DNA from: Brevundimonas sp.
Lineage (GTDB): Bacteria > Pseudomonadota > Alphaproteobacteria > Caulobacterales > Caulobacteraceae
Length of the DNA: 64,000 nucleotides
Direction of reading: 5' to 3'
Assembly (NCBI RefSeq): GCF_030704825.1
Contig: NZ_JAUYNX010000015.1
Location: forward strand, 14,687-78,686
In this document: in pieces, positions 10,289 to 57,195 of the stretch
How the letters are laid out: the number at the start of each line of letters is the position of its first letter
Position numbering within the stretch: position 1 is the first letter of the stretch
Program-made: the position numbers and the translations under genes
The notes under the pieces: model-generated
Seen by the model: only the letters and a program-made list of their open reading frames with translations
Databases searched by the model: none
What the model was told of the DNA's origin: nothing

Positions 10289-10447
10289 ACGGGTCTCCGG
10301 GCGTCTGGGCTTGGGTAGGCCCGGGGTCGGAACCGGTCAAGGTTCGCCCCGCCTCGCCCAACGTGGCTTCGAAAACGGCGTTCCCGCGTTGTTGTCGGCC
10401 CGGGCCTGGCTGCTATACCGGCCGCCGCTTCCCCACAGGACCCGATC

Positions 10448-35541: not shown

Positions 35542-36077
35542 AGGATGTACTCCCGTTCGAGTTCGTAGTGGCTGCCGTCGTGGGTCAGGACGCTGGAGTA
35601 CAGGCCGAAGCGGTCGACGCGGATCGGCGGCGAACGCAGCAGGTTGTGGCCGGCGATCCAGGCTCCGATCCGGTCCGGATTGGCGTGAGGCTTCAGATAG
35701 GCCAGCGTCAGATGGGGCCGATAGTCGCGGCGTTCGAGGACGACGGCGGCGCGCTCGGCCGCCGAGCGGCATCGTCCGGCCAGTACCGACAGGCGTTCGT
35801 TCGGCTCAACTCCCGCCCAGAGCGCCTGGGTGCGATGGCCCTCGCCGAAGGCCCCGACGCCGGCAAGGGCGATCTCGAACGGCCCGCCCGTCGCGGCCCG
35901 CTCCAGTTCGACCGCCAGATCGTCGGCGCGACGCGCCTCGACCTCGCCGTAGAAGGCCAAGGTGATGTGCAACTGCTCGGCGCCGCGCCATTTCGCGCCG
36001 GGCAGGCCGGTTTGACGGCGGGCGAGCGTCTCGGCCACATCGTCGGGAACGGACAGGGCGGTGAACAGCCGGATCAT
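35538..36077 (-). CDS. thpR: RNA 2',3'-cyclic phosphodiesterase (2H family)
   Basis: MIRLFTAL, two HxT motifs (LHITL, PHLTL), LYSS...GSHY. Confidence 0.9.
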   Translation of the reverse strand: MIRLFTALSVPDDVAETLARRQTGLPGAKWRGAEQLHITLAFYGEVEARRADDLAVELERAATGGPFEIALAGVGAFGEGHRTQALWAGVEPNERLSVLAGRCRSAAERAAVVLERRDYRPHLTLAYLKPHANPDRIGAWIAGHNLLRSPPIRVDRFGLYSSVLTHDGSHYELEREYIL

Positions 36078-36124
36078 GCGACCCTTGGTAGCGGTTGGAA
36101 ACCCGACGCCCAAGTCCGGTTTTC

Positions 36125-36153
36125 CTTGCGGAACGGGCGGACGCCCCCGATAT
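36125..36153 (+). promoter_or_regulatory. Possible RpoH-type promoter of the BI-1/YccA gene
   Basis: CTTGCG-N16-CCGATAT about 50 nt upstream of the ATG. Confidence 0.4.
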
Positions 36154-36201
36154 TTGCGCAAAGGCCGGGATCGCCCGGCCCAACGGAGGACCGATCTCGC
36201 C

Positions 36202-36957
36202 ATGAGCGATTTCAGAAACAGCCATTCCATCCCCGCCACCGCCGACATGTCGGTGGACGCGGGCCTGCGCAGCTTCATGCTGGGCGTCTACAACAAGGTC
36301 GCCCTGGGTCTGCTGGTCTCGGCGGCCCTGGCCTGGGTGACCGGATCCTATCCCCCGGTGCGGGATCTGCTGTTCTCGACCGCCGTCTTCCCCGACGGCG
36401 TGACCCGGCTGACCGGCATGACCCTGCTGGGCATGATCGTGGCCTTCTCGCCGCTGGTGGTGCTGCTGGGCTCCAACTTCGTGATGAAGAACCCGACCGC
36501 CGGGACGGCCGGCGGCCTCTACTGGCTGATCGTGGCCCTGATCGGCGCCTCGATGGGCACGGTGGTGCTGGTCTATACGGGCGCCTCGGTGATCCAGACC
36601 TTCCTGATCACCGCCGCCGCCTTCGGCGCCCTGAGCCTGTTCGGCTACACGACCAAAAAGGACCTGACCGGCTTCGGCAGCTTCCTGATCATGGGCGTGA
36701 TCGGCCTGATCATCGCCTCGGTGGTCAACATCTTCCTTCAGAACTCGATGATGCAGCTGATCATCAGCGTTCTGGGCGTGCTGATCTTCGCGGGCCTGAC
36801 GGCCTACGACACCCAGCGGCTGAAGATGACCTACTACGCCCTGGGCGGCGACCGGAACGCCATGGGCGTGGCCACCAGCTACGGCGCGCTGAGCCTGTAC
36901 ATCAACTTCATCAACATGTTCCAGTTCCTGCTGATGCTGTTCGGCGGCCGGCGCTGA
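36202..36957 (+). CDS. Bax inhibitor-1/YccA family membrane protein
   Basis: VDAGLRSFMLGVY, YGYTTKKDL-like FGYTTKKDLT, LTAYDTQRLK, GALSLYINFINMF. Confidence 0.9.
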   Translation: MSDFRNSHSIPATADMSVDAGLRSFMLGVYNKVALGLLVSAALAWVTGSYPPVRDLLFSTAVFPDGVTRLTGMTLLGMIVAFSPLVVLLGSNFVMKNPTAGTAGGLYWLIVALIGASMGTVVLVYTGASVIQTFLITAAAFGALSLFGYTTKKDLTGFGSFLIMGVIGLIIASVVNIFLQNSMMQLIISVLGVLIFAGLTAYDTQRLKMTYYALGGDRNAMGVATSYGALSLYINFINMFQFLLMLFGGRR

Positions 36958-37392: not shown

Positions 37393-37577
37393 CAGCATCA
37401 GGTTACGCCGCCGGTCTGGAAACACCAGTCTTGCCGGGGCCGGCAAGCAGCCGGCCTGCCGAACACTGTGTCGGGAACGCCGCGATGCGAACAAATCGTA
37501 CCGAACACGAAATAGCCTCCGTTCGGCCCATCGCCCGCCCCCTTGGGGGGCGACACCCGATCCATCGGCTCGTTGGA

Positions 37578-37715
37578 GCCCGGAGCGGTTCCGGATCCTG
37601 AACAGCCCCCCCAGCCCCCCTGGATCACTCCACATGGGCTTCAGCGGGCCGATGCTTCCTCCAAAGCGAGACGCCCGCTCCGCCACCCTCCCCCCTCCGG
37701 CAGAGCGGGCGTTTT
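37578..37715 (+). ncRNA. Candidate small RNA with C-rich/CCUCC loops (GsrN- or cuckoo-like)
   Basis: Plus-strand terminator (37671-37715) with no plus-strand gene to terminate; three C-rich hairpin loops; GCGAC-N16-CGTT upstream. 5' end is estimated. Confidence 0.6.
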
Positions 37716-37743: not shown

Positions 37744-39075
37744 TCAGGGCAGGATGATCTCCACCGGTTCCCCGGCCCGGGTCACCGACAGGATTTTCTG
37801 ACCGGCTCCCTCCAGCGCGGTGGCCAGGGCGTCCAGCCCGGCCACGGCGGAATCGTCGACCAGGGTGATCAGGTCGCCGGCCTGCAATCCCGCCCCGGCG
37901 GCCGGCGAACCGCCCTCGACCGAGAAGACCTGCAGGCCGTCCGACGCGGCCCGGACCGCGGCCCCACGCGCCATGACCGCATCCGGACCGGAAATGACCG
38001 AACGCTCGCGCGGCGTCTCCACCACCACCGTCGCGCGGCCCTCGCGGCCGTCGCGCAGATAGACCACCTCGACCCGGGTTCCCGGCTCGGCGATGCCGAC
38101 GGTCGCGGCCACCGTGCCGGCATTGGAGACGGGGCGATTCTGGATCCGCGTCACCACGTCCCCGCGGCTCAGGCCGGCGGCCTCGGCCGACGAGCCGGGC
38201 GCGACGTCCTCGACCACGGCGCCACGCACGATGCCGAGGCCGAAATCGCGCGAGCGCGCCGCGTTCAGCGACCCGAAGATGGCGCCCGTGGTTCCGCGTT
38301 TGACCTCGCCGGTCTCGCGCAGCTGGGCCGCGACATACATGAGGATGCGGCTGGGCACGGCGAAGGCGATGCCGTCGTTGCCGCCGCCGCCGCCCGACAG
38401 GATGGAGGTGTTGATGCCGATCAGACGGCCGCGGCTGTCCAGCAGCGGTCCGCCGGAGTTGCCCGAGTTCACCGCGGCGTCGGTCTGGATATAGTCCTCG
38501 ATCCGGTCGCCCATGCCCGAACGGCCGAGGCCGGAGATCACCCCCATGGTCAGGGTCTGGTCCAGGCCCAGCGGATAGCCGACGGCGAAGGCGAGATCGC
38601 CGGTCCGCAGCGAATCGGAATTGACCACCTCGATCTGGGACAGGCCGAGGCTGGCCACCGATGGCGCCTCGATCCTGAGCACGGCCAGATCGGTGGCCTT
38701 GTCGGTCCCGATCAGAACGGCGTCGAAGATGCGGCCGTCCGTCAGGTCGACGGTGAATTTCCGCCCCCCCTCGACCACGTGATTGTTGGTGACGACGATC
38801 CCCTCCCGGGCGTCGATGATGGCGCCCGAGCCGCTGGACATCGGACGCGGCTCATTGTCGCCCGAACTGGGTCCCTCGGACTGGCCCAGGGTGGTGACCT
38901 GCACCACGGCGGGCAGGGCCTGCTCCAGTCCGGTGGCGAAGGTGAAGACGCCGCGCCGGGCGTCGAACGGCACGGGCGACTGCTGCGCGGCCGCCGGCGT
39001 GGTCGTCGCCAGCAGCGGGACCGCGACGACAAGCGCCAGCAAGGCAAGACCGCCGGTCCGGTTGGTGGAACGCAT
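37744..39075 (-). CDS. DegP/HtrA (Do) serine protease with two PDZ domains
   Basis: Signal peptide; TNNHV, TDLAVL, QTDAAVNSGNSGG catalytic triad; PDZ repeats (V.PGS.A..AGL..GD). Confidence 0.9.
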   Translation of the reverse strand: MRSTNRTGGLALLALVVAVPLLATTTPAAAQQSPVPFDARRGVFTFATGLEQALPAVVQVTTLGQSEGPSSGDNEPRPMSSGSGAIIDAREGIVVTNNHVVEGGRKFTVDLTDGRIFDAVLIGTDKATDLAVLRIEAPSVASLGLSQIEVVNSDSLRTGDLAFAVGYPLGLDQTLTMGVISGLGRSGMGDRIEDYIQTDAAVNSGNSGGPLLDSRGRLIGINTSILSGGGGGNDGIAFAVPSRILMYVAAQLRETGEVKRGTTGAIFGSLNAARSRDFGLGIVRGAVVEDVAPGSSAEAAGLSRGDVVTRIQNRPVSNAGTVAATVGIAEPGTRVEVVYLRDGREGRATVVVETPRERSVISGPDAVMARGAAVRAASDGLQVFSVEGGSPAAGAGLQAGDLITLVDDSAVAGLDALATALEGAGQKILSVTRAGEPVEIILP

Positions 39076-39101
39076 CGCCAATCCCCTGTTGTTCGCAGAC
39101 C

Positions 39102-40550
39102 CTAGCGCGAGAAACGCGCCGTGACGACAGCCCCCGGCCCGGCGTCATCAATCGTCATGGACGCCCCGTGCCGCTTGAGGATGGCGCGCACGAACGCCAG
39201 CCCCATCCCGTGACTCTCGCGGCCGTTGTCGGCGGCGCTGGAAACGGCGCGCGCCAGGTCGTCCAGCACGGCCGGGTCCATGCCGGGGCCCTGGTCGGCG
39301 ACGGCCAGGACCGGCAGACCGTCCTCGAGCCGCACGCCGAGCGTGACCGTCCCGCCGTCCGGCGAGAATTTGACCGCATTGTCCACCAGATTGGTCACGG
39401 CCCTCTGCAGCAGGGAGCGAACGCCCAGCACCGGCACCGGCGAGGTTTCGACCCGGAGAACGACCCCGCGCTCCTCGGCCAACGGCTGGTAGAGGTCGGC
39501 CGCCGCCGCCGCCAGCCGATCCAGCCGGACCGTCTCGAACACCCAGGCCTCGCCGTCGCGCAGCGCCATGGCCTCGTTCATGGCGCGGGTCAGGCCGGTC
39601 AGGTCGGCGCGGGCCTCGGCCGCCAGGGCGCGGGCCTCGGGCGTGACGCTGGCCTCCTTGAGCCGGTCCAGGCGGGCCGAAGCCCGCGCCAGCGGAGTGC
39701 GGAAATCGTGGGCCAGCTGGTCGGCGGAATCCCGCAGCCAGCTGAGCAGTTCCTCCAGCCGGTCGAGGGTCAGGTTCACCTGGCCGGTCAGTTCGGTGAG
39801 CTCCGGAGCGACCGCGGTCTCGGGGGCCCGCACCGAGAAATCGCCCACCGAGGCCCGGTCCAGCGCCCGGCTGACCTGGGCGACGGCGCTGGTCAGGCGG
39901 CGGCGGGCGAAGGTGGCCGCCGCCAGGCCGAACACCAGCAGCAGAACCCCGGCGGCGGCCACCGCCGCGACGGCCCAGCCCCAGGCTGCGCCCGACCGGT
40001 CGACCACCCGGCCCACCGCGATGTCGAGCGCGCCGACCGACTGGCGCACCACCACCACTTCGACGGCGCGGGAGCGGCATAGCACGCCCCGCTCAAGCTG
40101 GACCACATAGACCCCGTCGCCGAGCCGCGGCGCACGCTCTCCCCGGACAGTTTCCAGCTCCGCCAGACCCGCCGGCTTGCCCACCGGAGCGCGAATGAAC
40201 CGCACCCCCGCGCCTCCGCGGCCCGTGCTGCAGGTCTCCTCGAGGCTGCCGGCCTCGCGGGTCGGGCCGGCCTGGAAGGCGCTCAGCCAGCCGGACAGAT
40301 AGGCGGCGTCGGCCTCGGTGATGCTGGAGGCGGCGAGGCTGGATTCCTCGCCCAGCTTGCCGACCATGGTGCTGTAGTCGTTGAGCGCGGCGAGCGCCGC
40401 CTTCTCTCGCTGGTCCATTCGCACCGCGGCGCTGGTGACCACCAGCGAGCCGATCAGGGCGGCGGCGGCCATGACGGCGATGCCGGCGGCCAGCTGGGTC
40501 GAGGTCCGGCGCCCCAGCCAGACGCCCAGGCCGAACAGGCGGAACGCCAC
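39102..40550 (-). CDS. Membrane sensor histidine kinase (HAMP-HisKA-HATPase)
   Basis: Two TM segments; LAHDFRTPL H-box; NLVDNAVKF N-box; DQGPG; HGMGLAFV. Confidence 0.85.
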   Translation of the reverse strand: MAFRLFGLGVWLGRRTSTQLAAGIAVMAAAALIGSLVVTSAAVRMDQREKAALAALNDYSTMVGKLGEESSLAASSITEADAAYLSGWLSAFQAGPTREAGSLEETCSTGRGGAGVRFIRAPVGKPAGLAELETVRGERAPRLGDGVYVVQLERGVLCRSRAVEVVVVRQSVGALDIAVGRVVDRSGAAWGWAVAAVAAAGVLLLVFGLAAATFARRRLTSAVAQVSRALDRASVGDFSVRAPETAVAPELTELTGQVNLTLDRLEELLSWLRDSADQLAHDFRTPLARASARLDRLKEASVTPEARALAAEARADLTGLTRAMNEAMALRDGEAWVFETVRLDRLAAAAADLYQPLAEERGVVLRVETSPVPVLGVRSLLQRAVTNLVDNAVKFSPDGGTVTLGVRLEDGLPVLAVADQGPGMDPAVLDDLARAVSSAADNGRESHGMGLAFVRAILKRHGASMTIDDAGPGAVVTARFSR

Positions 40551-40556
40551 GGCCGC

Positions 40557-41369
40557 TCAGCCCGTCCAGGCGGACAGGTCCCGAAACACCAGACTCTGGC
40601 TGCGGGCCGAGACGATCAGCGGATGCAGGTCCTCGCCCAGTTCGGGCGCCTGCTCCTTGAGCCGGCGACGCAGGGCGCTGATGCGGGCGTCTATGATGTT
40701 GACGAAATTGTCGGGCAGGAACCGCCATTCGACCCAGCAGCGGTCCCACAGCATGGTCTTGGTCACCGGCTGGCCGCGCGCGGTCATCAGTTCGCAGACG
40801 ATGGCGAACTCCAGCGGCGACAGGTCGATCAGGCGCGAACCGCCCTCGACCTCGAACTTCAGCGTGCGGGCGCCGAAGGCCAGCCGGAAGGGCCCGTTGA
40901 CCAGGTCGCCGCCGGCCGGGGCGGCATGGCGGGCGGCGCGGCGCAGCTGGGCGGCGATGCGAGCCAGCAATTCCTCGTCGCCGACCGGCTTGGCCAGATA
41001 GTCGTCCGCCCCGCCCAGCAGGCCCTCGACCTTCTGGCGCTCGCCCCCCAGGGCGGTCAGCATCAGGGCCGGGGCGTCGGCGCAGGGCCCGCCGCCCGCC
41101 CGGACGCGCTTCAGCGTCTCCAGCCCGTCCAGCCCCTTGGTCAGGCGGTCGAGGATCAGGACATCAAAGGGGCTGGCCGCGGCGGCGATCGCGGCCTCGC
41201 CGCTGTCGACCCGCTCCACGGCCCCGAATCCCGCGTCCAGCAGCCGCCCGGCGACGTGATCGGACAGGGCCGGATCATCCTCCAGCAACAGGGCGCGGCG
41301 GCCGGCGAACACCGCGCGCAGCTGGGCGAAGGGATCGTCGCCGTCGATGCCTGCCGTTTCCCCGTCCAT
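40557..41369 (-). CDS. OmpR-family response regulator
   Basis: LLLEDD, DVLILDR (phospho-Asp), LMLTALG, ADDYLAKP, C-terminal winged helix; GGGGAG SD before ATG 41369. Confidence 0.88.
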   Translation of the reverse strand: MDGETAGIDGDDPFAQLRAVFAGRRALLLEDDPALSDHVAGRLLDAGFGAVERVDSGEAAIAAAASPFDVLILDRLTKGLDGLETLKRVRAGGGPCADAPALMLTALGGERQKVEGLLGGADDYLAKPVGDEELLARIAAQLRRAARHAAPAGGDLVNGPFRLAFGARTLKFEVEGGSRLIDLSPLEFAIVCELMTARGQPVTKTMLWDRCWVEWRFLPDNFVNIIDARISALRRRLKEQAPELGEDLHPLIVSARSQSLVFRDLSAWTG

Positions 41370-41606
41370 GGTCACTCCCCCCGGGCCGACGATACGGCGT
41401 TGAAGCGGAATGACAATGCTCAACGGACCGCGTTCGCGCAGACTAAGCGTCGCGCGGGGTCCCGGGGCTGATTGTTCCTGATCGGGCATTCCAGCGGGCC
41501 GCGGTCGTCGGCCCTTCGGGACCTCCCGACCAGACGCGGCCTGGCGCTTCGCGCATGCCTGGCGCTCAAGCAGCGAGCGACCGCGTCGCGAGCGTTAGCG
41601 CCCCGC

Positions 41607-53620: not shown

Positions 53621-54418
53621 TTACGCCGCCGCCTTCTGACGCGACGGATGGAAGAACAGGGCCTGGCTGATCGCCGCCTTCACCGTCTCTGGCTGGAAGG
53701 GCTTGGTGATCAGGAAGGTCGGTTCGGGCCGTTCGCCCGTGAGCAGCCGTTCGGGGAAGGCGGTGATGAAGATCACCGGAACATCGATCCGCTTGAGGAT
53801 GTCCTTGACCGCGTCGATCCCGGACGAGCCGTCGGCCAGCTGGATGTCGGCCAGCACCAGGCCGGGGCGATGGCGGGCGACCGCATCGACGGCCTCGTCA
53901 TGGGTGATGGCGGTGCCGGTGACGCGGTGCCCCAGTTCCTTGACCAGGCTTTCGATGTCGGCCGCGATGATGGCCTCGTCCTCGATGATCAGGACGTCGG
54001 TGGCCAGTTCCGCGTCGATGTCGGACTGGGCTTCCGAGATCAGCCGTTCCACGTCATGGGCGTCGGCGTCGAGAATCTGGGCGGCCTCCGAAGGAGTGAA
54101 CCCCTCGAGCGCGGTGAGGAGGAAGGCTTGGCGGGAGCGCGGCGCGATCCGCATCAGGCGGCGCGAGGCGTCGTCGCCCCGCCCTTCCAGGCCGCTCTTG
54201 TCCTCGAGCTGGGCGCCCGTGGTGGTCCAGATGGCGTGGAAGACATGGTAGAGCGCCACGCGCGGCGTCATGTCGGCCGGCAGTTGGCGTTCGCCCGCGG
54301 CCAGCGCCTCCAGCGCCACCCGGACATAGTTGTCGCCCGTCATCTGATCGCCGGTCAGCGCCCGGGCGTAACGGCGGACGTAGGGAAGATGCGGCGCAAG
54401 GCGGGCCAGCAGGCTCAT
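53621..54418 (-). CDS. phyR: Anti-anti-sigma factor PhyR
   Basis: N-terminal sigma-like domain ([13 protein letters not shown]) plus C-terminal receiver ([24 protein letters not shown]). Confidence 0.95.
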
Positions 54419-54476
54419 GTACTAAAATCCCCGACATTAATGAGGGTCCGACCATGGAACCTCAGCAGTTCGGGTC

Positions 54477-54501
54477 AACGTATCAAATCGGCCACGGTTC
54501 C
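54477..54501 (-). promoter_or_regulatory. SigT/EcfG promoter of phyR
   Basis: Minus strand GGAAC-N16-CGTT. Confidence 0.85.
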
Positions 54502-54542
54502 CGTCCCGCGCCCAAGCTTGAGCATTAATCGTTCGTCACCTA

Positions 54543-54567
54543 GGAACCGCCCTCGCGGGCCGGCGTT
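54543..54567 (+). promoter_or_regulatory. SigT/EcfG promoter of nepR-sigT
   Basis: GGAAC-N16-CGTT. Confidence 0.85.
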
Positions 54568-54612
54568 CCGGCACTCGCAACAACTATCGTCAGGGTGGCG
54601 GCCGTTTTCTCT

Positions 54613-54810
54613 ATGACAGACAATTCCAATCCTCCCGGCAAGCCGCCCAAGGGCGGCGCAGGCCTGGAGGAAGCGCGACTTCGCCAGCAGGCCATCGGCG
54701 TCAAGCTGCGCCACATGTTCGACGAGGTCGTGAACGAGCCGGTGCCGGACGAGTTTCTCGATATCCTGCGCCGCGCCGACGACCGGGCCTCCGGCGAGGG
54801 CGGCTCATGA
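54613..54810 (+). CDS. nepR: Anti-sigma factor NepR
   Basis: QQAIGVKLRHMFDEVVNEPVPDEFLDIL; coupled to the sigma factor gene. Confidence 0.92.
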   Translation: MTDNSNPPGKPPKGGAGLEEARLRQQAIGVKLRHMFDEVVNEPVPDEFLDILRRADDRASGEGGS

Positions 54811-55418
54811 GCGGAACCTCCAGTCCGCCGCCGAAACCGCCCTCAGCCGACGACGACGCCTTCAAGCGGGAGCTCGTCACGCTGATTCCACATCTGCGGG
54901 CTTTCGCGCGCACCCTCACCGGCGATCCCACGGCGGCGGACGATCTCGCCCAGGACGCCATGATGAAGGCGTGGGACGCGCGGGCCAGCTACCAGATGGG
55001 CACCAACATGAAGGCCTGGACCTTCATGATCCTGCGCAATCAATTTTACTCGGAAAAGCGCCGCTCGTGGCGCCAGTCGCAGCTGGACCAGGAGGCCGCC
55101 GAACGCACCCTGGTGGCGGTCGACGACCCGGAATCGCCGGTGGCGCTCGACGAGCTTCGGCTGGCCCTGGCCACCCTGCCGGAAGAGCAGCGCGAGGCCC
55201 TGATCCTGGTCGGCGCCGGCGGCTTCGCCTACGAGGAGGCGGCCGAAATCTGCCAATGCGCCGTGGGTACGGTGAAGAGCCGTGTGTCGCGGGCGCGCAA
55301 GGCCCTGCAGGCCACGCTGGAAAAGGGTGGATACGCCCGCGACGGTCGCGCCGCGGGCGACGCCATGCGATCGATCCTGGCCGCCGCGGACCGCCTGAGC
55401 AGCGTCCGGCAAGGCTGA
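54807..55418 (+). CDS. sigT: ECF sigma factor EcfG/SigT
   Basis: LRAFARTL...ADDLAQD...GTNMKAWTFMILRN...REALILVGAGG..YEEAA...GTVKSRVSRAR. Confidence 0.92.
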   Translation: MSGTSSPPPKPPSADDDAFKRELVTLIPHLRAFARTLTGDPTAADDLAQDAMMKAWDARASYQMGTNMKAWTFMILRNQFYSEKRRSWRQSQLDQEAAERTLVAVDDPESPVALDELRLALATLPEEQREALILVGAGGFAYEEAAEICQCAVGTVKSRVSRARKALQATLEKGGYARDGRAAGDAMRSILAAADRLSSVRQG

Positions 55419-55422
55419 GGCC

Positions 55423-57195
55423 GTGGTCCGGCTTGGCCGAGCGCTCGGACGCGGTCTGGCTCCGCCGAAGTTTCAGGGAATCCGGTTCCGACTGGGCCTG
55501 TGGCTGGCCGCCGCCCTGTTGCCCGTCCTGGTCCTCGGCGCCTTCCAGACCCAGTCGGCCTTCCGCGCCCAGGATCTTGAGCGGCGCTCCGACCTGCAGC
55601 TCGCCGCGGAACGGGCCGCCGCCAGCGCCAAGGCCCGCCTGGACAGCACCGGGGTGTTGCTGCAGGCGCTGCGGCCCGAGGCGCTGGAGGTGTTCTGCGA
55701 GCCGCGCCTGACCGACCTTGTCGAACGGCTGGACGATCTGGACGGTCTGGCCCGATTGACAGCCACGGGTCAGCCCGATTGCGCCTCGGCGAGTCTGGTC
55801 GCCGCGCGGCCGGCCTGGATGGAACAGGCCCGCGCCACGCCGTGGTTCGAGCGGCTTCGCGCGGGTGAGAGTACGGTGCTGGCGCGCGCGCCCGCCACCG
55901 GGGGGCGGCCGCCTGGCCTGATCGTCGCCATCCGGCTGGAACGGCCGATGGGCCGATTCGACGGGGCCATGGCGGCCCTGATCCCGCTGTCGAGCCTGCA
56001 GCCCGATGTCGAGGACCCCGCCTTGCCGGAGGCCTCCGAGGCGGCGCTGACCGACGCCGAAGGCCGGCTTCTCACCGCCACCGACAGCGCTGCCTTCACC
56101 CTGACGGGGGGCGTCAGCCTGACCGGTTGGGTCGAAAGGGCGCGATCGGACGCCTCCGGCATCTTCGAAGCCGAGAACGCCGCCGGCCGCCGGCGGGTCT
56201 ATGCCGGCGCGGCCCTGGCCGGCCGCGACGTCTACGCCCTGCTATCGGCGCCGGCGCCCGGCCTGCTGTCCTGGGCGCGGCTGAACCCGGTCGGCGCCCT
56301 GTTCATGCCGCTGCTGACCTGGCTCATCGCCTTCTCGGCGGTGATGCTGGTCAGCGAGCGGATCGTCATCCGCTGGCTGGGCTATCTGGAGCGGGTCGCG
56401 GCCATCTATGCGAGAGGGCGGTTCTCGGTTCGGCCCGTGCAGGCCATTAACGCCCCCGCCGAGATTCGCGTTCTGGCGCGCACCCTGGACGAACTGGCCG
56501 AATCCATCGCCGCCCGCGACGCGGCCCTGACGGCCTCGCTGGCCGAGAAGGACGCGCTGATGCGCGAGATTCACCACCGGGTGAAGAACAATCTGCAGAT
56601 CATCTCGTCGCTGCTGTCGATGCAGCAGCGCGCCCTGACCGATCCGAAATCCAAGGCGGCCGTGGGCGACACGCGCCAGCGCATCTCGGCGCTCGCCCTG
56701 ATCTACCGCACCCTCTACCAAAGCGACGACCTGCGCTTCGCCGACGCCCGGATCTTCCTGACCGAACTGGTCGGCCAACTGGTCGCCAGCGAGTCCGGGC
56801 GGGGTCAGCTGGTCACCTCGTCGGTCGAGGCCGATTCCCTCGTGGTCGATCCGGACAAGCTGGCCCCCCTGGCCCTGTGGCTGGTCGAAGCGGTCACCAA
56901 CGCCCAGAAGCACGCCTTCGCCGGACGCGGCGGCGATCTGAAAGTGCGTTTCTCGGTGCGGGGCGACACCAGCGTGCTGGAGGTGCAGGATGACGGGCCG
57001 GGCGTCAGCGAGACCCTCCGCGCCGGCGTCGGCCGCACCCTGATGGGCGCCTTCGCCAAACAGTTGCGCGGCGAGGTGGAAATGGTTCCGGCGGAGGGTG
57101 GCGGGACGATCGCCCGGATGACCTTCGCCACGCCCGAGGCCGTGGCCCCGACGGACCCGGCTGATCTTGGAACCCCGGCCGGTCCGCGACGTTGA
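55423..57195 (+). CDS. phyK: HisKA_2 membrane sensor kinase of the general stress response (PhyK-like)
   Basis: EIHHRVKNNLQ H-box; two TM segments with a periplasmic domain carrying two Cys; position directly after sigT. Confidence 0.75.
   Translation: MVRLGRALGRGLAPPKFQGIRFRLGLWLAAALLPVLVLGAFQTQSAFRAQDLERRSDLQLAAERAAASAKARLDSTGVLLQALRPEALEVFCEPRLTDLVERLDDLDGLARLTATGQPDCASASLVAARPAWMEQARATPWFERLRAGESTVLARAPATGGRPPGLIVAIRLERPMGRFDGAMAALIPLSSLQPDVEDPALPEASEAALTDAEGRLLTATDSAAFTLTGGVSLTGWVERARSDASGIFEAENAAGRRRVYAGAALAGRDVYALLSAPAPGLLSWARLNPVGALFMPLLTWLIAFSAVMLVSERIVIRWLGYLERVAAIYARGRFSVRPVQAINAPAEIRVLARTLDELAESIAARDAALTASLAEKDALMREIHHRVKNNLQIISSLLSMQQRALTDPKSKAAVGDTRQRISALALIYRTLYQSDDLRFADARIFLTELVGQLVASESGRGQLVTSSVEADSLVVDPDKLAPLALWLVEAVTNAQKHAFAGRGGDLKVRFSVRGDTSVLEVQDDGPGVSETLRAGVGRTLMGAFAKQLRGEVEMVPAEGGGTIARMTFATPEAVAPTDPADLGTPAGPRR
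57169..57193 (+). promoter_or_regulatory. SigT/EcfG promoter of the entericidin gene, inside the kinase 3' end
   Basis: GGAAC-N16-CGTT. Confidence 0.8.

Follow-up and report, generated by a model that had tools for sequence, protein, structure and literature searches.

We analysed a 64,000-nucleotide stretch of the genome of a Brevundimonas sp. (assembly GCF_030704825.1, contig NZ_JAUYNX010000015.1, positions 14,687 to 78,686 of the forward strand; hereafter the window) and in it the intergenic region that adjoins a minus-strand gene for a DUF2794 protein. The DUF2794 gene is flanked on its other side by a Bax1-I gene (36061-36957, plus strand), and the database relatives nearest to its product all carry Brevundimonas or Caulobacteraceae labels. 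Past the intergenic region follow minus-strand genes for a DegP-like protease, a histidine kinase and an OmpR-type regulator. A preliminary description of this DNA, made from its letters, had placed an unannotated plus-strand small RNA (sRNA) gene between these genes, divergent from the DUF2794 gene, with C-rich loops, a terminator of its own and no plus-strand gene behind it. Our analysis bears out such a gene: the neighbours behind the element all lie on the minus strand, and we found no plus-strand protein gene downstream of it. The element at 37564-37715 is very probably a real plus-strand sRNA orthologous to CCNA_R0088 of Caulobacter crescentus. Our best explanation as a whole, to which we give a probability of about 0.7, is that it represents a stand-alone small RNA gene, the Brevundimonas ortholog of CCNA_R0088, which is controlled by ChvI and acts by base pairing. 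The features on which the following analysis draws are collected in Table 1.

Table 1. Features of the sRNA locus and of the loci compared with it, in window coordinates unless marked C11 (contig numbering). MFE, minimum free energy; SL2, stem-loop 2; GSR, general stress response.
Feature	Position	Strand	Remarks
sRNA gene	37564..37715	+	About 152 nucleotides, starting with the first P1 nucleotide and ending with the U tract; probable R0088 ortholog (RF01530)
Conserved promoter block ACGAAATAGCCTCCGTTCGGCCCA	37507..37530	+	-57 to -34 relative to 37564; presumed activator site
Core promoter spacer/-10	37543..37557	+	TTGG-GGG-GCGA at -21 to -11; weak -10-like GACACC at -12 to -7
P1, 5' strand AUCGGCUCGUUGG	37564..37576	+	Pairs 13/13 with 37641-37653, three G-U; holds the CGTT of the preliminary description
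P1, 3' strand UCAGCGGGCCGAU	37641..37653	+	Covariation test and RNAalifold
Inner part of 5' hairpin	37577..37640	+	P1b, P2 and apical module
P1b AGCCC/GGGCU	37577-81/37636-40	+	Wobble pairing kept in relatives (AGUUC/GGGCU)
P2 GGAGCGGUUC/GGAUCACUCC	37582-91/37622-31	+	Own-versus-foreign partner test
Apical module GGAUCCUGAACAGCCCCCCCAGCCCCCC	37593..37620	+	Family-wide conservation; C7 at 37606-12, C6 at 37615-20; presumed seed or recognition region
SL2 GCUU-CCUCCA-AAGC	37654..37667	+	MFE and centroid fold; anti-Shine-Dalgarno CCUCC loop
Intrinsic terminator	37673..37715	+	Stem 37673-84/37699-710, C/U-only loop ACCCUCCCCCCUCC at 37685-98, G-UUUU at 37711-15
DUF2794 gene, 110 amino acids	37060..37392	-	Pfam PF10984, E 9e-37; divergent syntenic neighbour of the sRNA
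gsrN ortholog	C11:82130-82275, approximately window 67444-67589 (gene approximately C11:82163-82275)	+	GGAAC-N16-CGTT, GCGGAGGCGGCGACGCCCCCCGACUUGAGGCUGA..., terminator
GSR locus	53621-57195	-/+	phyR 53621-54418 (-), nepR 54595-54810, ecfG/sigT 54807-55418, HWE/HisKA_2 kinase 55423-57195 (+)

We compared the intergenic region with Rfam in a sensitive scan, a check that the preliminary description had suggested. The sole significant match is RF01530, 'Caulobacter sRNA CC3664', which aligns over its whole model (positions 1-136) to 37564-37711 with 38.1 bits and an E value of 7.5e-5. The apical module of this family, GGAUCCUGAACAGCCCCCCCAGCCCC, is present identically at 37593-37620. The window RNA is a sub-threshold member of a known, functionally uncharacterised sRNA family. 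Within the window no Rfam model reached its gathering score, and weak matches to Thr_leader, 6C, mir-3937 and ar14 were set aside, as their E values are at least 0.25 and they arise from the terminator and the C-rich loops. The genome contains a single RF01530 copy. Matches to the family were obtained for 22 of 24 genomes within the genus and for 108 of 121 Caulobacteraceae genomes in the sample, representing 25 of 27 genera and including some tandem pairs; in one draw with stricter filters, 16 genomes belonging to other families in the order gave no match. The order of Bax1-I, DUF2794 and divergent sRNA is common to the window and Caulobacter. The core motif of the sRNA lies on the strand opposite to the DUF2794 gene in 66 of 80 Brevundimonas DUF2794 loci, in 62 of them about 140-220 nucleotides upstream of that gene. 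The other 14 of the 80 have no adjoining sRNA and no Rfam copy there, some being cut by contig ends. Loci without the adjoining sRNA (L107-L117 and L124) come, among others, from several records of B. diminuta, B. naejangsanensis and B. bullata. In three of these loci a sub-cut-off match to ctRNA_p42d (RF00489, 33-38 bits) lies just past the DUF2794 gene.

Published transcript maps of C. crescentus NA1000 allow the Caulobacter counterpart to be named. CCNA_R0088 has been placed at 3946037-3946176 (+) and CCNA_R0092 at 3946278-3946395 (+) (Schrader 2014 supplement). R0088 is a discrete transcript of about 140 nucleotides expressed in minimal medium, and the Schrader 2014 table, which cites a tiling-array mapping, labels it 'minimal medium expressed sRNA'. 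The transcription start of CCNA_03779 ('cytosolic protein') was reported at 3945886 (-), with the promoter string GTTCCAATCGCCTCGTTTATCGCTA (Zhou 2015 supplement). This string occurs exactly in one sampled Caulobacter genome (G160), which is of the C. crescentus type. Transferred to this locus, the published coordinates make R0088 GUCGGCUGAUCGG...GCGGGCUUUUU and R0092 GUCGAAAGCGACC...CGCGGGUUUU, and the RNA-seq-mapped ends of both coincide exactly with the first P1 nucleotide and the end of the U tract. The gene at the CCNA_03779 start is a DUF2794 homolog with a leaderless mRNA, as identified via a neighbouring Caulobacter locus (L024). From these coordinates and the position of the DUF2794 gene it follows that CC3664 is R0088, that R0092 is its tandem sibling, and that the window RNA is the single-copy ortholog.

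The window RNA shares with R0088 and R0092 the apical module, helices P1 and P2 with compensatory changes, the C-rich-looped terminator, the position divergent from DUF2794 beside Bax1-I, and the 24-nucleotide promoter block at equal distance. It differs in being a single copy rather than a tandem pair, in an additional length of about 12 nucleotides, with P1b as a further helix and a bulge, in carrying the CCUCC hairpin in its middle region where Caulobacter has AUAUCCCCUCCCC, and in having a weaker -10, degP instead of DUF1223 downstream and an Rfam score below cut-off. Tandem R0088-like and R0092-like copies are seen in many Caulobacter genomes and in several other genera (for example L024:1744-1857 and L135:1882-1999), and second RF01530 matches are also present in G134, G158 and G118. 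In the second tandem copy, which is shorter, the apical module is degenerate (CCUGACCAGCCCCCAGCCCUCCC), but a promoter block of its own is kept. In the papers searched, we found only expression-level mentions of R0088 and R0092 and no target or function; a search for CC3664 listed no paper that contains this term.

With 37564 as its first nucleotide, the RNA folds with an MFE of -80.3 kcal/mol, MFE and centroid structures are identical, and the z score is -6.37, with none of 200 shuffled sequences folding as well. The opposite strand gives a z score of -2.5 and a diffuse ensemble. We tested helix P1 on an alignment of 39 distinct 5' domains, with 500 shuffles and with controls in which the partner strand was slid. 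Across these homologs, 98.6% of the cells are paired, and two-sided changes occur at 9 of the 13 pairs, in 53 cells. None of the 500 shuffles matched the observed values, sliding the partner strand left 6-50% paired, and RNAalifold alone recovers the helix. G-U pairs account for 80 of the 506 counted P1 cells, with three in the window copy; the opposite strand would have A-C mismatches at these positions, and P1 is thus complete only as a plus-strand RNA. P2 was misaligned by MAFFT and was consequently examined in an anchored test with 37 distinct 5' strands. Here, the own partner pairs on average at 8.0 of 9 positions, compared with 6.4 of 9 for foreign partners; 8 or more pairs are formed with 74% of own and 14% of foreign partners, and the window copy pairs at 8 of 9. 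Both P1 and P2 covary across the family.

The 28-nucleotide apical module is letter-for-letter the C. crescentus-type sequence (locus L135), and its columns in the family alignment (39 rows) are for the most part invariant and otherwise at least 90% conserved. A CUG/CAG pairing closes an 11-nucleotide apical loop, AACAGCCCCCC, which contains the first C tract; the second C tract is mostly located on the 3' side of an internal loop in the consensus fold. The 3' half of the sRNA is variable between genera. SL2 (CUUCCUCCAAG) is kept in nearly all Brevundimonas copies, and its stem is invariant in the genus, hence no covariation signal can be read from it; in other genera a different C-rich stretch or nothing is found at this position. 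The plus-strand terminator with its T-tract, the CCUCC hairpin and the C-rich loops had all been described before, and we recover each of them, the hairpin in both the MFE and the centroid fold and the loops with the C7-AG-C6 tract at 37606-37620. The stem cugaa..gccc/gggcuucag proposed at the same time holds as an alternative fold; the conserved fold is the long hairpin formed by P1, P1b and P2.

The arms of the terminator stem, GCCCGCUCCGCC and GGCAGAGCGGGC, enclose a loop of 14 nucleotides; our terminator consensus scan, which has a loop limit of 8 nucleotides, missed the hairpin. Among relatives the stems vary in sequence yet keep their complementarity, and in every case the sRNA strand is the one with the T-run. 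A terminator with a C/U-only loop is present throughout the family, even beside a different downstream gene (for example DUF1223 in Caulobacter). As the degP-like gene ends at 37744, 34 nucleotides before the hairpin on the minus strand, one could suppose that no plus-strand RNA is made and that the hairpin at 37673-37710 is a degP-like terminator only, the remainder of the region being non-functional spacer. The hairpin may indeed also stop the degP transcript. We nevertheless consider this explanation highly improbable. The T-run belongs to the plus strand, and on the minus strand the stem is followed only by GUCUCGCUUUGG (CUUUGG). The hairpin accompanies the sRNA in genera that have another downstream gene, the 90 nucleotides upstream of it fold into helices in which G-U pairs are strand-specific and changes compensatory, and the 28-nucleotide block is conserved across the sampled genera, which is unexpected in spacer DNA. 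In addition, the Caulobacter ortholog is a detected transcript.

The preliminary description had attributed the RNA to a SigT promoter and to the GsrN family. A GCGAC-N16-CGTT motif is present at 37550-37574, with an exact CGTT, the N16 spacing and a 3/5 match at -35; the C-rich loops are GsrN-like, and phyR, nepR and ecfG lie 16-18 kb from the sRNA within the window. That a SigT (EcfG)-dependent, GsrN-family sRNA would start from this motif is nevertheless a reading which we take as already refuted at the sequence level, with a negligible chance of being right. On both strands of the 64-kb window, 36 sites combine a 3/5 match with CGTT, compared with 4 perfect sites; such a match is not beyond chance, while genuine EcfG promoters in this genome are perfect sites. 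The CGTT at 37571-37574 is located inside the 5' strand of the covarying helix P1, 7 nucleotides downstream of the counterpart of the mapped Caulobacter 5' end, and thus cannot be the -10 element of the sRNA. The presumed -35 GCGAC (37550-54) lies in the core promoter spacer/-10 region. At the position of this CGTT, 9 of 65 Brevundimonas loci have CGTT and 40 of 65 have CGTC, GGAAC occurs in no homolog, and the Caulobacter ortholog has no motif of the GCGAC-N16-CGTT type. Of this proposal the motif stands, and the promoter does not.

The GsrN assignment fails as well. gsrN is located at 3830125-3830250 in NA1000 (PMC5869019), and we deduced nucleotides 10-57 and 62-89 of the RNA (R0081) from the northern probes given in that study. 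The deduced sequence, GACGCCCCCCGACUUGAGACUGGCGAAAGCCAGUCCGCCGCCUUCGCA..., has no resemblance to the window RNA, and sequence comparison found the features of GsrN, its 5' loop ACGCCCCCCGAC included, to be absent from it. A BLAST search with these pieces, which had been recommended earlier, was run against the whole genome; its best match lies not at the sRNA locus but at C11:82174-82191 (G000), with 18/18 identity to GsrN nucleotides 10-27. The true gsrN ortholog is thus found elsewhere in the genome, about 3.5 kb past the right end of the window and about 12 kb from the GSR locus. A perfect GGAAC-N16-CGTT (C11:82130-82154) lies directly upstream of it, and a GsrN-like hairpin and the terminator GGCGGGCCCCGGGCCCGCCUUUUU follow downstream. 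This position fits the report that gsrN homologs lie near the GSR genes in Brevundimonas (PMC5869019). The GSR locus itself has perfect GGAAC-N16-CGTT promoters at 54501 (-), 54543 (+) and 57169 (+), another perfect site is at 10384 (-), and a second perfect EcfG site near the gsrN ortholog, at C11:82091 (-), points in the opposite direction. We had at first suspected CC3664 itself to be GsrN, which the published probe sequences and the true ortholog rule out.

Kinship with the cuckoo family, also suggested before, is not supported: the Rfam model ar14 (RF02344) scores 12.1 bits against a cut-off of 58.8, with an E value of 6.9, and scans of the window and the intergenic region gave no match to other alpha-r Rfam families. 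Several further Caulobacter sRNAs were discarded as candidates, because they belong to other loci: ChvR (R0100), CrfA (R0093, with a G/A-rich loop), AbnZ (R0123), RusT (R0199) and SisA-D (R0014, R0133, R0143, R0157).

Upstream of the sRNA, the promoter block is conserved across the sampled genera, with the consensus aCGAAAUGRCCyyAuUUCGGUCC in most of them. With 21.9 bits in a position weight matrix (PWM) of the block, the window copy outscores every other site in the 3.39-Mb genome, the runner-up having 16.5. The tandem second copies in Caulobacter have their own block at equal distance (26.2, 23.4, 17.1 and 14.7 bits), and in a C. crescentus-type genome the R0088 and R0092 promoters are the only matches with at most one mismatch. 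Matches with 3 mismatches in that genome are as numerous as those to a reversed-pattern control, and one that we inspected lies in coding sequence; a degenerate GCC-N3-[GT]TTCG pattern gave 598 matches and is uninformative. The block is followed by an invariant CGCC and then by an A/T-richer -10 region, in which the C. crescentus alignment shows TTGC-GGG-TCGA and, at -12 to -7, GATAAG. A scan with the sigma-70 consensus detected no promoter. An inverted repeat, TCGCCC...GGGCGA at 37530-37553, occupies the promoter spacer between the block and the -10. Its arms co-vary in relatives (for example CGCCCGCCC-GTTT-GGGCGGCG and CGTCC...GGACG), it overlaps TTGS-N3-GCGA, and it is too near the start site for an upstream terminator.

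Experiments in C. crescentus connect these promoters with ChvI. The CCNA_R0088 promoter is among the top ChvI peaks in chromatin immunoprecipitation sequencing in minimal medium (PMC9731502, Fig 3A legend). Upon sucrose upshift, R0088 has a log2 fold change of 6.14 (rank 3, approximately 70-fold) and R0092 one of 5.23 (rank 5) in wild type versus a chvI deletion (PMC9731502 S2 table). In a separate study, R0088 was up 7.7-fold in a fur mutant and has no Fur box. Putative ChvI sites have been described as direct repeats of GCC at a distance of 11 nucleotides (10.1101/2021.04.17.440287), as N-GCC-N8-GCC in S. meliloti (as cited, at second hand, in PMC9731502) and as the putative motif TTGC-N3-GCAA (PMC9731502). 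The window block contains an exact GCC-N8-GCC (37515-37528), which is the spacing of the reported putative ChvI sites, and TTGG-GGG-GCGA follows at 37543-53. A chvI-chvG-hprK operon is present in this genome. The Caulobacter experiments and the conservation of the promoter together suggest that the block is a ChvI site, and ChvI probably controls the sRNA in this organism too, which we hold with moderate confidence. Transcription would start at about 37564 from a weak core promoter dependent on the binding of an activator at 37507-37530, most likely phosphorylated ChvI, and the RNA would be made when ChvI responds to minimal medium or to a stress of the envelope, osmotic or acid kind.

Several results weigh against our interpretation, and those on identity and control are given here. 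The RF01530 score of 38.1 bits is below the curated gathering cut-off of 60. This cut-off is a curation threshold and not a biological feature; 21 of the 22 genomes matched within the genus also stay below it, and sub-threshold scores in Brevundimonas are expected if RF01530 was built from close Caulobacter relatives. The -10 GACACC is much poorer than the GATAAG of Caulobacter, although a poor -10 in this subclade would fit an activator-dependent promoter. The claims on transcription, 5' end and ChvI dependence of the window sRNA draw on homology. The block PWM gives -9.8 bits on the organism's own chvI promoter, where 62% of random windows are as good, and neither this genome nor C. crescentus has further block matches beyond chance. 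We have thus rejected the 24-nucleotide block as a general ChvI box, as the genome scan returns only the sRNA site and leaves the chvI promoter unscored; the block may be bound by some factor other than ChvI. In Brevundimonas the sRNA may answer to a different regulator, either that of the adjacent OmpR/kinase/DegP operon (41489-37744, minus strand), an envelope-stress-like two-component system with a protease, or a further block-binding factor. Beyond being absent from the chvI promoter and from any other site, the block is inverted-repeat-like in most genera (CGAAAT-N6-ATTTCG), which is unusual for the tandem-binding OmpR family. We regard such a regulator as unlikely, however, since the block is kept where the OmpR/kinase/DegP operon is absent, for example in Caulobacter with DUF1223, and since both block-bearing Caulobacter promoters are strongly ChvI-dependent, one of them being bound by ChvI in vivo.

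As to the function of this sRNA, we slightly favour action by base pairing. The RNA would act in trans, with its exposed C tracts and the CCUCC loop pairing to G-rich or Shine-Dalgarno regions of mRNAs. GsrN and AbnZ provide a precedent, as their C-rich loops act on G-rich leaders. GsrN (CCNA_R0081) is likewise an alphaproteobacterial trans-acting sRNA whose 5' hairpin exposes a cytosine tract, and the principle of a C tract pairing with G-rich leaders such as katG and osrP is probably shared; its sequence is unrelated, however, the window RNA has no EcfG promoter, and the regulator of the ortholog is ChvI. AbnZ (CCNA_R0123) resembles the window RNA in its high GC content, three hairpins and homopolymeric C loops, and acts on a G-repeat in the 5' untranslated region of tamAB independently of Hfq; it differs in locus and sequence. 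The alpha-r14 'cuckoo' and AbcR/alphaR8-type RNAs have similar CCUCC-type loops, but there is no significant Rfam match to them.

The remaining difficulties concern this mode of action. An exact-complement target search with the conserved module yielded matches of at most 15 nucleotides, and no match fell on a persuasive ribosome-binding site. The set of 18 sRNAs that are enriched with Hfq in C. crescentus includes neither R0088 nor R0092, and the family may therefore act independently of Hfq or without base pairing. An alternative is that the RNA is a real R0088 ortholog whose C-rich tip is a binding site for a protein or a sponge for a G-rich RNA, CrfA-like RNAs being one example. The near-complete conservation of 28 nucleotides, predicted paired bases included, extends beyond the usual short seed and would be accounted for in this way, as would the lack of Hfq enrichment and of an obvious mRNA target. 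The SL2 loop CUUCCUCC furthermore resembles the alphaR8 core UUUCCUCCCU, and the G/A-rich loop of CrfA captures UUUCCUCCCU-type sRNAs. Yet SL2 is genus-specific and so cannot explain conservation across the family, neither a protein nor a G-rich RNA partner has been identified, and GsrN and AbnZ, the two Caulobacter sRNAs with C-rich loops that have been characterised, both act on mRNAs. A protein-binding or sponge role thus appears improbable to us. Window 22756 (-), equivalent to C11:37442, reads GGGGGCUGGGGGG with AGGAGG immediately behind it and contains a 13-nucleotide perfect complement of C6-AG-C5 in the sRNA; we rejected it as a target, as no start codon lies at ribosome-binding-site distance.

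For annotation, these findings indicate that the gene is correctly named an R0088/CC3664-family sRNA and not a GsrN-like RNA. The Brevundimonas copies are overlooked by standard Rfam annotation because they score below the cut-off of the curated model; a model rebuilt from the sequences gathered here would annotate the whole family. The family is noteworthy, as it is near-universal in the sampled Caulobacteraceae, keeps a 28-nucleotide C-rich module almost unchanged across the sampled genera and includes transcripts that are among the most strongly ChvI-dependent of C. crescentus. ChvR (CCNA_R0100), which represses chvT, is another sRNA that ChvI-ChvG activates in minimal medium and upon envelope stress, and it is not associated with Hfq. 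It has been described as specific to C. crescentus and has an unrelated sequence, whereas the R0088 family is spread across the Caulobacteraceae; in the chvI deletion comparison its log2 fold change is 2.2, against 6.1 for R0088. We put forward, as a possibility that falls somewhat short of even odds, that the R0088-type RNA and not ChvR is the ancestral riboregulator of ChvG-ChvI across the Caulobacteraceae, with the C7-AG-C6 tip as a dedicated recognition module for a conserved group of G-rich leaders or for a protein and the 24-nucleotide block as a high-affinity or composite ChvI operator that other ChvI targets do not show.

The minus-strand operon at 37744-41489 encodes a response regulator of the OmpR type, a HAMP histidine kinase and a protease of the DegP/HtrA kind that has two PDZ domains. 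By resemblance it is a Cpx-like envelope-stress module; it adjoins the sRNA in Brevundimonas, and in Caulobacter DUF1223 is found in its place.

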